Notes under the pieces: generated by a model
Told to the model about the DNA's origin: nothing
What the model saw: the letters and a program-made list of their open reading frames with translations, nothing else
The model's database searches: none
Shown here: piece after piece, positions 13,055 to 14,750 of the stretch
Position numbering within the stretch: the stretch's first letter is position 1
How the letters are laid out: each line of letters starts with the position of its first letter
Made by a program: the position numbers and the translations under genes
From: a virus
Taxonomy: Duplodnaviria; Heunggongvirae; Uroviricota; Caudoviricetes
IMG/VR virus record: IMGVR_UViG_2541047960_000005
Length of the DNA stretch: 43,137 bases
Strand: one strand, 5' to 3'

Positions 13055-13080
13055 TATGCAATTGTTTACTAAAAGTTATT

Positions 13081-13104
13081 AAAAATGGGGCGTGGAAACG
13101 CCCC
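13081..13104 (-). terminator. intrinsic terminator for the porin transcript
   Basis: Hairpin GGGGCG-TGGAAA-CGCCCC followed on the minus strand by U5. Confidence 0.45.
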
Positions 13105-13190
13105 CAAATAAAGGGTAATATATAACAGAAGGTTTATATAGTAAGAAGCAAGGTAGTGCCTCTAAAGGAAGTGGCTTGAGGGCTCCACTT

Positions 13191-13230
13191 ATATGTTGCG
13201 GAGGCAAAGCCTCCCGCAACATATCTTTTT
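13191..13230 (+). terminator. intrinsic terminator downstream of the Q-like gene
   Basis: About 14-bp stem ATATGTTGCGGAGG...CCTCCCGCAACATAT followed by T5. Confidence 0.5.
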
Positions 13231-13241
13231 CGTAAGTCAGA

Positions 13242-14324
13242 TTAGAACTGATAAACCAGACCTACAGCGACGATGTCGTCGGTATCAATACCAGCTGTTT
13301 TGGTAAACTTACTATCGTCAATTAAGTTGATTTTGTAATCAACAAAAGTGGACATGTTTTTATTAAAGTAGTAAGTAGCACCGACATCGACATACTTGAC
13401 TAAGTCTCGGTCACCATGAACACCAAGGTCTTTACCTTTTGACTGAAGGTAAGCAACAGATGGGCGCAGACCGAAGTCAAACTGATATTGTGCTACTGCT
13501 TCAAAGTTTTGTGCTTTGTTTGCAATATGGTTATTACCAAAAACGGTCATATTCTGAGTTTCAGAATATGTGGTAGCCAGATAGATATTGTTCGCATCAT
13601 ATTTCAGGCCTGCAGCCCATACTTCCGCATTTTTGCCGGAGGCATTGAATTTGCTCTTACCATAGGCGACCTGACCGTCAGTGCGATCTGATTTAGCATA
13701 GGTTGCACCCACGCCGAATCCTTCATACTCATAAGTAGTGGAGAAACCGAAACCATCACCATTGGCTTCAGCTACGTCAGTGCGGTCATTTTTACCCTGA
13801 TACTGAGCAGCAAAGTTCAGGCCATCGACCAGACCAAAGAAGTCGTTGTTACGATAAGTTGCAACACCAGTTGCACGTTGAGTCATGAACACGTCGGTTT
13901 GAGTCCAAGTGTCACCACCGAATTCTGGCAGGACGTCAGTCCACGCACCGATGTCGTATGCTACACCGAAGTTACGGCCGTAATCGATTGAGCCGTAATC
14001 ACCAAATTTCAGGCCTGCAAATGCAAGACGGGTTTTGTCTTTGGAAGAACCTTGAGATTCAGCACGGTTGCCTTTGAAGTCATATTCCCACTGACCGAAA
14101 CCAGTCAGTTGATCGTTGATTTGGGTTTCACCTTTGAAGCCAAGACGAGCATAAGTAGTATCACCATCATCTGCATCATTAGAGGAGAAGTAGTGCTTGG
14201 CATTAACTTTCCCGTATAGATCCAGCTTGTTACTGTCTTTATTATAAATTTCAGCTGCCTGAGCAGACATCGCCATCAGTACTGATGCAGCTACAGCAGA
14301 AATTGCCACTGTTAATTTTTTCAT
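13242..14324 (-). CDS. nmpC: general porin (OmpC/OmpF/NmpC/Lc family), intact with signal peptide
   Basis: [23 protein letters not shown] signal then [16 protein letters not shown]... through C-terminal ...[10 protein letters not shown], hallmark enterobacterial porin motifs; opposite strand to flanking phage genes. The gene symbol is by context. Confidence 0.85.
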
Positions 14325-14750
14325 TGTACGCCCTTTTTTTGAACTATTATAAAAAAATGATGTCACTGCGCGATAAATATTCATCTAATCAATGTGATTA
14401 TTTCAAGATGTAAGTTTTAGTTTCTCATTTAATTTGTGACGTAGATCTCTATTTTTATCTGAACCTTTTCTATCTAATCCTATTCATGGCTCTTGTTTGA
14501 ACAAAAATAAATCTATTAGCTAATTTATATTAATGACACTTATTTATAAGCGCCCTATAATTTTTTGGCTTAATTTAAACAACCTAAAAATAACATCGGA
14601 AATTATTCATTGGTTATTTGTTGAAGTTTTCTTATGTATTTGTGGTGGTGTTTTGAACACTCGGTGGCATTCTCACAAATATCATTTAGTAGTTTACGTA
14701 CGTAAAAAATTGGTTATGCTGTTAAGAGTGGTTACTTCGTCACACAGCTT

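Follow-up and report, generated by a model that had tools for sequence, protein, structure and literature searches.

A very probable NmpC/Lc-type lysogenic-conversion cassette with an intact porin gene and a possible antisense segment against the ompC leader

Porin cassettes of the NmpC/Lc type are among the oldest known examples of lysogenic conversion. The Lc porin of phage PA-2 was reportedly described by Schnaitman in 1975 and by Blasband in 1986, and a homologous cassette, nmpC-ipeX, lies in the cryptic K-12 prophage DLP12 (qsr'). The ipeX RNA sits in the tail of the nmpC/lc transcript and is reported to repress OmpC and OmpF (PMC12197685, PMC5069750, PMC8065619). Its action has been described as not relying only on complementarity (PMC12197685) and as Hfq-independent, with one likely direct target (PMC8313858), and ipeX RNA is measurable in clinical isolates (PMC7177473). 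The K-12 nmpC promoter, PnmpC, is active by 5' RACE and activated by CRP, with OmpR, IHF and MprA as its reported repressors (PMC11677980).

We analysed a stretch of viral DNA of 43,137 nucleotides, hereafter the window (IMG/VR record IMGVR_UViG_2541047960_000005), and compared its porin region with these systems. Very probably, the region is a lysogenic-conversion cassette of the NmpC/Lc type that is intact and belongs to a lambdoid E. coli prophage; an RNA action and a Q context are proposed for it below (Table 1). Q lies on one side of the porin gene and the lysis genes on the other, with the porin on the opposite strand; this arrangement is the same in PhiR49_1, CE10, DLP12 and PA-2. The lc gene of PA-2 (GenBank J02580) has this position and orientation, an identical signal peptide, a homologous promoter region with CRP sites and a homologous 3'UTR, with 90.6% protein identity. 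The window protein is five residues shorter than Lc, substitutions and small indels falling into a few short clusters, and the two 3'UTRs differ at about 12 bases. Downstream, the window block is joined to a Stx-phage-like region (methylase fragment, tRNAs, esterase), whereas the PA-2 block is joined directly to the holin gene. DLP12 shows the same quuD-ipeX-nmpC-promoter layout, with 91.7% identity for both the protein (against reconstructed K-12 NmpC) and the 3'UTR (against the quuD-nmpC spacer) and an almost identical core promoter. K-12 nmpC is broken by IS5 after codon 346, whereas the window copy is intact; Q, in contrast, is intact in K-12 and carries a nonsense codon in the window. More distant are the NmpC proteins of P7, which is P1-like, and its relatives (83.6% identity). 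The P7 gene resides in a P1-type plasmid prophage, adjoins ssb and has no Q beside it; its 3'UTR has the same hairpin architecture and terminator, but hairpin 1 no longer has a T-run behind it on the plus strand. Chromosomal OmpD of Salmonella, Citrobacter and Enterobacter belongs to the same porin clade (75-80% identity) but is not phage-borne, and its 3'UTR of about 55 nt lacks an IpeX-like element.

Table 1. Features of the porin region, in coordinates of the window
Feature	Position	Strand	Basis
Q antiterminator gene of the Q21 family, homologous to quuD, with a disrupting TGG->TGA at 12710-12712 (W14*)	12671-13054	plus	PF06530, translation
Intrinsic terminator of the porin/IpeX transcript (GGGGCGU-UUCC-ACGCCCC, then AUUUUUAAU)	13078-13104	minus	terminator scan and fold
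Structured porin 3'UTR, IpeX homolog, 164 nt between porin stop and terminator	13078-13241	minus	homology, fold, covariance model
Predicted single-stranded 3'UTR segment 5'-AACCUUCUGUUAUAU/AUUAC/CCUUUAUUUG-3', complementary to ompC leader -33..-7 including the Shine-Dalgarno	13105-13134	minus	duplex prediction
Intrinsic terminator-like hairpin and CUUUUU after Q; minus-strand reading is hairpin 1 of the porin 3'UTR	13191-13230	plus	fold
Porin gene, NmpC/Lc type, 360 aa	13242-14324	minus	ORF listing, profile and alignment matches
Porin signal peptide, 23 aa	14256-14324	minus	match to PA-2 Lc annotation
Porin 5'UTR, core promoter (PnmpC homolog) and proximal CRP site (~14431-14452, AATTTGTGACGTAGATCTCTAT)	14325-14460	minus	K-12 identity; PA-2 J02580 annotation
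Promoter-like site of sigma-70 type (ATGACA-17-TATAAT), divergent from the porin promoter and a candidate for the Q-dependent, pR'-like late promoter	14533-14561	plus	consensus and conservation
Distal CRP site homolog (PA-2 J02580 positions 1067-1087)	14728-14748	minus	coordinates inferred by offset
tR'-like intrinsic terminator, ~200 nt past the candidate late promoter and at the end of the conserved Q-porin block	14751-14778	plus	scan and fold

The porin matches Pfam Porin_1 (PF00267) over positions 1-337 of 337 (E 6.7e-151 in the profile search) and scores 522 bits against the NCBIfam OmpC subfamily, whose cut-off is 484. Its coding sequence contains no stop and no frameshift, and its DNA is identical to the annotated CE10 gene. 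The proposal in the initial annotation of a complete general porin with a signal peptide, antisense between Q and the late genes and free of inactivating changes, is thus borne out, and the idea of a chance frame or decayed pseudogene is already refuted by the end-to-end family match and the identity to the CE10 gene. In the ORF listing, the longest form of the frame (13242..14384, minus strand) starts at an upstream ATG and encodes 380 aa. We place the start at ATG 14324 (MKKLTVAIS...), in agreement with the PA-2 lc start and its 23-codon signal peptide and with the CE10 annotation; the transcription start, as positioned through the K-12 core promoter (PMC11677980), probably falls downstream of the ATG at 14384. 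The cleavable signal peptide, with an A-x-A end before AE(I/V)YNKD, is identical to the annotated one of PA-2 Lc. The PEFGG constriction-loop motif (LPEFGGDTW) and the C-terminal aromatic beta-signal (...GLVYQF) are intact, and the protein aligns over its full length to the solved structures of OmpC, OmpK36 and PhoE. From the gap-poor alignment to the OmpC and PhoE chains we infer a 16-stranded trimeric barrel with pore activity.

Alignment places the protein closer to NmpC and Lc than to OmpC, OmpF, PhoE and OmpN of the host (61-67% identity); Salmonella OmpD is about 80% identical. Judged by its sequence, the porin is an OmpD-clade general porin with a Sec signal peptide. Its differences from NmpC and Lc fall into a few short clusters (residues ~182-187, 217-227, 263-267, 303-306 and 335-347), most of which coincide with indel sites of porin paralogs.

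The gene find itself is not new: the NmpC/Lc cassette is already known, and E. coli and Shigella commonly carry this allele. The exact protein occurs on 726 public contigs, labelled NmpC or OmpC. Automatic pipelines annotate this porin as ompC, a mis-annotation that can mislead studies of porin loss and of carbapenem or cephalosporin permeability. At least 19 sequenced E. coli phages carry the Q-porin block at about 98% identity, 36 phage records contain most of it, and it is matched in 4158 of 5426 E. coli genomes. The CE10 prophage is 98% identical and carries holin, lysozyme and Rz genes downstream. In the window, the similarity to other phages ends at 14774.

The promoter region is likewise shared with the known cassettes. 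Positions -199 to -1 upstream of the porin are 92.5% identical to K-12, and about 90 bp that take in the core promoter and the first part of the 5'UTR differ only by a single T/A change near the proximal end. The sequence of the distal CRP site is identical in the window, PA-2, K-12 and PhiR49_1. This homology and the annotated CRP sites point to the CRP-type promoter region expected of an NmpC/Lc cassette. By the literature on PA-2 and DLP12, the cassette would be transcribed in a lysogen independently of phage late control and stimulated by cAMP-CRP, and the phage-type porin would be placed in the outer membrane. It seems unlikely to us that the intact porin is instead silent in the lysogen, a quiescent passenger kept only by its linkage to Q and the late promoter and leaving the envelope unaffected. 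The title of Prilipov 1998 reportedly describes nmpC and ompN of E. coli B as quiescent porin genes; an AT-rich regulatory region and the three reported repressors of K-12 PnmpC fit such silence. On the other side stand the intact coding sequence, carried as an identical protein on hundreds of contigs, a core promoter almost identical to one that is active by 5' RACE, and the ipeX RNA of clinical isolates (PMC7177473). The clustering of differences in short variable segments also appears compatible with selection on an exposed protein.

Terminators after Q on the plus strand and after the porin on the minus strand, both named in the initial annotation, were recovered by folding and scanning. 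The plus-strand one consists of a stem at 13191-13224 that has a single bulge, and of a CUUUUU run reaching 13230; it folds at -21.9 kcal/mol (z = -7.0, with none of 200 shuffles as good) and was missed by a simple terminator scan because of the bulge. Its T-run has five T in 106 related loci and four in 42, and is lost in the P7 copy, which has no adjoining Q. The minus-strand terminator has a stem from 13104 to 13087 with 6 G-C pairs, followed by AUUUUUAAU; among K-12, PA-2 and P7 the stem is conserved and the loop variable. The two were said to converge and to insulate the porin, but they are interleaved rather than face to face, the minus-strand one lying on the Q side of the plus-strand one. 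The transcripts from the Q side and from the porin would therefore overlap by about 150 nt. The plus-strand hairpin would end rightward transcription after Q and double as hairpin 1 of the porin 3'UTR. In the whole region, 7 terminator-like sites were observed where 3.0 +/- 1.6 were expected.

The stretch between the porin stop and its terminator is not mere spacer but a conserved structured RNA, the homolog of IpeX. It folds with a z of -5.75. Our own covariance model of the element (R1) scores 202 bits in the window, 190-226 bits in all lambdoid copies and 73 bits, over the full length of the model, in P7-type copies. Applied to 21 chromosomal porin loci, 17 of them of the ompD clade at 73-80% identity, the same model found nothing credible (one match of 12.4 bits, E 0.61). 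A BLAST search with the 3'UTR over 80 species-representative loci gave matches only in E. coli and E. albertii. Rfam 15, searched over 12900-15000 with gathering and E-value thresholds, gave nothing meaningful, the weak matches to Trp_leader, sau-19 and BSR0739 reflecting hairpins only. Between lambdoid and P1-like copies, 16 of 46 base pairs show compensatory changes, which stem essentially from the one deep split between lambdoid and P7-type copies in an alignment fitted to the model. Hairpin 4 is probably misaligned in P7 in this model-fitted alignment, and MAFFT misplaces P7; hairpin 4 was not relied on. The element stays with the porin where Q is absent, as in P7 and in an E. albertii remnant. 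The PA-2 and K-12 spacers are identical to each other, and the reported IpeX size of 167 nt fits the 3 extra bases of K-12 (PMC12197685).

Directly upstream of the minus-strand terminator, the 3'UTR contains a segment that is predicted to be single-stranded and that is complementary to the ompC leader. The abstract of Castillo-Keller 2006 reportedly notes a lack of complementarity to the ompC untranslated region. Predictions with the full-length RNA gave meaningless long-range loops; short-segment duplexes with shuffles and dimer folding were used. The duplex of the segment with the ompC leader reaches -29.8 kcal/mol (z -6.2), and none of 2000 shuffles was as good. On cofolding, the gain is -22.2 kcal/mol with the ompC leader versus -1.2 kcal/mol with the leader of the cassette itself. 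The target is nearly constant in the host, the ompC leader being at least 99% identical in 5362 of 5371 genomes. On the RNA side, Block 1 of the segment is invariant in 147 of 148 loci while neighbouring loops and spacers vary. The diverged P7-type copy best matches the ompF initiation region (22 bp, z -5.1) and has UUAUUUAUUACC in common with MicF. The loop of hairpin 2, CCCUCA, had also been considered as an anti-Shine-Dalgarno sequence (35 of 37 copies) and was dropped, since 6-nt matches are not specific.

These predictions suggest a model that we advance tentatively, as a possibility open to real doubt: the IpeX tail may be a MicF-like antisense RNA made from an inverted host porin leader. 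By computation, the segment would be an ompC-type leader copied in inverted orientation. Of its bases in lambdoid copies, 25 (13105-13114 and 13120-13134) would pair with the Shine-Dalgarno region of ompC, and the segment would pair more weakly with the ompF initiation region, as MicF does with ompF; in P1-like copies the ompF start would be the target. The cassette's own leader, which is different, would escape pairing. The likeness to MicF is that of an RNA linked to one porin gene and able to pair with the ribosome-binding region of another porin mRNA, and the predicted duplex energy is comparable to that of MicF with ompF (-27.4 kcal/mol). However, MicF is a separate gene, located beside ompC and divergently transcribed, whereas the segment in the window is part of the 3'UTR of the porin mRNA itself, and its pairing is predicted.

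It is quite conceivable, though we would stop short of calling it probable, that the complementarity is an unused relic of an old inverted duplication and that IpeX acts otherwise, for instance by protein titration or indirectly. The plus strand at 13105-13138 agrees with the ompC leader in 27 of 30 aligned positions, which shows common descent, and complementarity is therefore expected from descent alone. The review of the mechanism as one not only of complementarity (PMC12197685) and the Hfq-independence described for the effect on ompC (PMC8313858) point the same way. A relic would not, in contrast, account readily for the constancy of Block 1 amid varying neighbours, for the predicted single-strandedness beside the terminator, for the match of the diverged P7-type copy to a porin initiation region, or for the lack of a match to the cassette's own leader. 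The antisense model offers a simple, testable mechanism for IpeX. If true, it would provide direct base pairing for an RNA described as not explained by complementarity, and phages would carry a self-contained module that swaps host porins. The pairing with ompC is novel only if it is functional and has not been reported previously.

[quoted passage not shown] With a phage porin added and OmpC and OmpF lowered, the porin set of the cell would thus be swapped, which would change permeability and remove the OmpC-type receptors of related phages and colicins. The initial annotation had predicted such changes in permeability and receptors from expression of the porin; that part agrees with the classical account of PA-2 Lc and IpeX (PMC8065619, PMC12197685, PMC5069750), but the agent would differ. 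Receptor removal would come mainly through the action of the 3'UTR RNA on ompC and ompF rather than through the porin protein. With an intact porin copy and a tail RNA that reportedly lowers OmpC and OmpF, the carrier could show altered antibiotic uptake and altered sensitivity to phages and colicins.

Beyond the porin, on the plus strand, lie a promoter-like site and a terminator that most likely form the target unit of Q, so that the late operon would start there. The site matches the sigma-70 consensus at 11 of 12 positions, and PhiR49_1 has no other such site from Q to the holin gene. Although flanking bases vary, TATAAT is present in 139 of 143 related loci, with a fixed AATTTAAA 12 nt downstream, and the distance from the promoter anchor to the terminator is 179 nt in all 143. 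The order of a strong promoter-like site, a terminator at about 200 nt and then the lysis genes resembles a late unit of the lambda type; in such a unit the promoter directly follows Q, whereas the candidate here is separated from Q by 1.5 kb that include the porin cassette. The literature on DLP12 essDp is said to support this placement of the late promoter. The cargo gene would thus separate the Q antiterminator from the promoter that Q probably targets. A divergent RNA gene like MicF or MicC had also been considered for this plus-strand unit (14533-14561 with 14751-14772); it was dropped for a late promoter, leader and terminator, since in functional phages the holin gene comes directly after the unit, whose -10 and spacing are fixed.

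We regard as improbable a fully lambda-like layout in which the late promoter sits right after Q, the hairpin at 13191-13230 is tR', and Q-modified polymerase reads antisense through the porin to the lysis genes. That hairpin makes a good terminator on the plus strand and follows the Q stop by 137 nt, a spacing that resembles lambda pR'-tR', and a TTGATA noticed by eye overlaps the Q stop codon. However, no promoter-like site with at least 9 of 12 matches was found in 13055-13190 or in the same interval of K-12 or PhiR49_1. The hairpin is moreover kept as an RNA structure in P7, without Q, while the conserved TATAAT promoter and its terminator at a fixed distance of about 200 nt lie beyond the porin, and the mosaic boundary follows that terminator.

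A promoter unit beyond the porin leaves Q itself to be considered. Its family assignment is clear (PF06530, E 5.6e-40, with a distant match to the Q21 structures 6P18 and 6JNX), and a gene of the Q family is part of a lambda-type late unit; here it carries a premature stop at codon 14. Late-gene expression of the prophage is therefore probably impaired, while the porin cassette would be independent of Q. The nonsense codon suggests that the prophage may be turning into a fixed remnant that donates a porin, as DLP12 is. Position 12712 is G in CE10; codon 14 is TGG in 82 of 82 related loci, and W14* occurs in none of them.

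Within the minus-strand open reading frame spanning the porin (13242-14384), the ATG at 14324 is the biologically sensible start; it gives 360 residues including a 23-residue signal peptide and agrees, in start and signal peptide, with the annotation of lc in phage PA-2 and of the identical gene in the CE10 prophage. Pfam Porin_1 covers the protein end to end (E 6.7e-151), bearing out the complete minus-strand general porin with signal peptide of the initial annotation. The protein scores above the NCBIfam OmpC-subfamily cut-off, aligns without disruption to the solved OmpC, OmpK36 and PhoE chains, and keeps the PEFGG constriction-loop motif and the C-terminal ...VYQF intact. 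The alignment with OmpC, OmpF, NmpC and Lc suggested as a check gave 91.7% protein identity to K-12 NmpC (with IS5 taken out in silico) and 90.6% to PA-2 Lc; identity is 83.6% to NmpC of the P1-like phage P7, about 80% to Salmonella OmpD and only 61-67% to OmpC, OmpF, PhoE and OmpN. Differences from NmpC/Lc cluster at residues about 182-187, 217-227, 263-267, 303-306 and 335-347, which suggests surface loops, because most of these clusters coincide with indel positions of porin paralogs. A hairpin within the coding sequence, shared with phage PhiR49_1, has 3 G-C pairs and so is probably not strong enough for termination.

DLP12 and PA-2 share the order Q, opposite-strand porin, lysis genes, and the window carries a classical lysogenic-conversion cassette of the NmpC/Lc type. 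The initial observation stands and its functional reading is broadly right, in a system already well known. The exact porin occurs on 726 public contigs, where it is called NmpC or OmpC. At least 19 sequenced E. coli phages carry the 2.1-kb Q-porin block at about 98% identity; 36 phage records include most of it, and 4158 of 5426 complete E. coli genomes contain matches. The closest genome, strain CE10, has 3 differences over 2151 bases in an mlrA-linked prophage, with an identical porin gene. The gene itself is of low interest, to which the antisense lead described below and the cassette's location, with Q on one side and the promoter that Q probably targets on the other, add slightly.

The 199 bp upstream of the porin start are 92.5% identical to K-12, and about 90 bp of core promoter and early 5′UTR are the same save one T/A difference. 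Conservation extends to both CRP sites marked in the PA-2 record. In K-12 the nmpC promoter is active by 5′ RACE, with CRP reported as an activator and OmpR, IHF and MprA as repressors (PMC11677980). We infer that the porin would be expressed in the window's strain.

Convergent terminators, one on the plus strand after Q (13191-13230) and one on the minus strand after the porin, had been proposed to insulate the porin gene. Both exist, but of the two the minus-strand terminator is the one nearer Q, so that a transcript overlap of about 150 nt is predicted; the two would be interleaved and not simply insulating. In our reading, rightward transcription past Q ends at 13191-13230, and the opposite strand of this stretch forms hairpin 1 of the RNA ending the porin mRNA (tail RNA).

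No sigma-70-like site was detected from the Q stop to the porin stop in the window, K-12 or PhiR49_1. A candidate late promoter lies beyond the porin, and its homolog in PhiR49_1 is the sole promoter-like site in the stretch from Q to the holin gene. Its TATAAT is kept in 139 of 143 related loci while adjoining bases vary; across the 143, a AATTTAAA block stands at a fixed 12 nt after the -10 element and the distance to the next terminator is constant. This layout matches the lambda pR'-6S-tR' design. Since the promoter-terminator unit (14533-14778) is found there and none between the Q and porin stops, 13191-13230 was rejected as tR'. The Q-dependent promoter of DLP12, essDp, which lies upstream of the holin gene, agrees with this placement. 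The cassette thus probably sits between Q and the promoter that Q targets. A single base in the spacer of the candidate late promoter, 14551, differs from CE10. Similarity to other phages stops at 14774, just past the terminator.

Features in and around the Q-porin block and elsewhere in the prophage
Feature	Position	Strand	Remarks
isrK	6563-6639	+	Rfam match
C4 antisense RNA	6664-6751	+	Rfam match
Q gene	12671-13054		codon 14 TGA at 12710-12712
Tail RNA	13078-13241	-	end of porin mRNA
Terminator hairpin	13104->13087, then AUUUUUAAU	-	as clear as the plus-strand one
Terminator-like hairpin	13191-13224, then CUUUUU	+	fold -21.9 kcal/mol, z -7.0
Hairpin in porin gene	13548-13570	-	sense strand; 10-bp, AT-rich, then T-run
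Candidate late promoter	14533-14561	+	ATGACA-17-TATAAT, 11/12 matches; divergent from porin promoter
Strong terminator	14751-14778	+	about 200 nt downstream of candidate late promoter
DNA methyltransferase fragment, followed by the two tRNA genes below	14775-15312	+	fragment N-terminally truncated
Two tRNA genes	15154-15226, 15239-15312	+	annotated Ile and Arg in CE10
142-aa ORF	15594-16022	+	lipoprotein-type signal (...LTTGC); TolA C-terminal domain (PF06519, E 3.8e-23)
STnc100	16192-16398	+	full-length Rfam match, 162 bits
Sialate O-acetylesterase-like gene	16621-18582		653 aa; SASA, DUF1737, DUF6645

Codon 14 of Q is a nonsense codon (W14*), where CE10 and all 82 related loci covering the position have TGG; the residue belongs to the WGAW motif common to Q and Q21. 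Restart at GTG 12734 would lose 21 residues and has poor Shine-Dalgarno spacing. Late gene expression is probably impaired, perhaps to the point that this prophage cannot turn it on; the defect does not bear on the porin cassette.

Across the Q-porin spacer, identity to the K-12 quuD-nmpC spacer is 91.7%; the K-12 and PA-2 spacers are identical, and by sequence the region separating the porin from its terminator is an IpeX homolog. According to reviews, the 167-nt ipeX lies in the phage porin transcript tail and lowers OmpC and OmpF (PMC12197685; PMC5069750; PMC3333887; PMC8065619). Folding of the window tail is well above background (z -5.75). A covariance model built on nine lambdoid copies matched all phage-borne lambdoid copies (190-226 bits) and the P7-type copies (73 bits, E about 1e-19) over their full length, and gave no credible match in 21 chromosomal porin loci, 17 of them ompD-clade at 73-80% identity (one hit, 12.4 bits, E 0.61). 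The 3'UTRs of chromosomal ompD genes are only about 55 nt. The model-fitted alignment, in which hairpin 4 of P7 is probably misplaced, has 96% of cells paired; compensatory changes, deriving from essentially one deep split, occur in 16 of 46 pairs, against 3.2 +/- 1.4 in shuffled and 0-2 in slid controls. The element accompanies the porin even without Q, in P7 and in a remnant in Escherichia albertii NBRC 107761 (L030, 231-2676) consisting of bor, an NmpC-type porin and an IpeX-like tail and directly abutting chromosomal ycgN-like genes; porin and tail RNA persist there as a unit after prophage decay. Position 13160, which differs from CE10, is C in the window and T in 84 of 84 related loci; the change turns a hairpin 3 A-U pair into G-U on the porin strand and would leave C opposite A, a mismatch, on the plus strand.

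Between hairpin 3 and the terminator, the tail segment 13134->13105 (minus strand) reads 5'-AACCUUCUGUUAUAU AUUAC CCUUUAUUUG-3' and is complementary to the K-12 ompC leader CAAAUAAAGG C AUAUAACAGAGGGUU (-33..-7), Shine-Dalgarno included. The predicted duplex (-29.8 kcal/mol; MicF with ompF by the same method, -27.4) was equalled by none of 2000 dinucleotide shuffles (z -6.2) and beat all of 12,310 natural 53-nt windows except its own antisense. Dimer folding of the whole tail with the ompC leader gained -22.2 kcal/mol through 34 intermolecular pairs, leaving hairpins 1-3 and the terminator in place; the gain was -11.2 with the ompF leader and -1.2 with the cassette's own leader. The plus-strand sequence of 13105-13138 and the ompC leader agree in 27 of 30 aligned positions, with a single 4-nt indel, and the segment therefore looks like an inverted porin-leader copy. 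Block 1 of this segment is invariant in 147 of 148 copies, and in 5362 of 5371 E. coli genomes identity across the ompC leader reaches 99% or more. P7-type copies have a diverged tail, whose strongest pairing is with the ompF start region (22 bp, z -5.1) and which has UUAUUUAUUACC in common with MicF. The Castillo-Keller 2006 abstract reportedly found no complementarity between IpeX RNA and the ompC untranslated region; we present the pairing as a computed lead and claim no discovery. The 3' half and U-run of the tail-RNA terminator (ACGCCCCAUUUUU, 13078-13093) are complementary to the cassette's own Shine-Dalgarno region (AAAAAAAGGGCGU, 14330-14345), a match that is probably not meaningful because it is weak and inside a stable stem.

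Elsewhere, isrK and C4 make up a P1/P7-type antirepressor control module, in a region corresponding to one annotated with Rha-family regulator genes in the CE10 prophage. The methyltransferase fragment and tRNAs resemble the layout of Stx phages, but toxin genes do not follow; the porin block is joined to this region in only 7 of 143 related loci. The phage-encoded TolA domain III could be a decoy for Tol-dependent colicins or filamentous phages. The STnc100 match lies just upstream of the esterase-like gene. Otherwise 98-99.9% identical to the CE10 prophage, the window prophage runs past the tape-measure-gene truncation point of the latter (34269-43137) and therefore retains more of the tail region.
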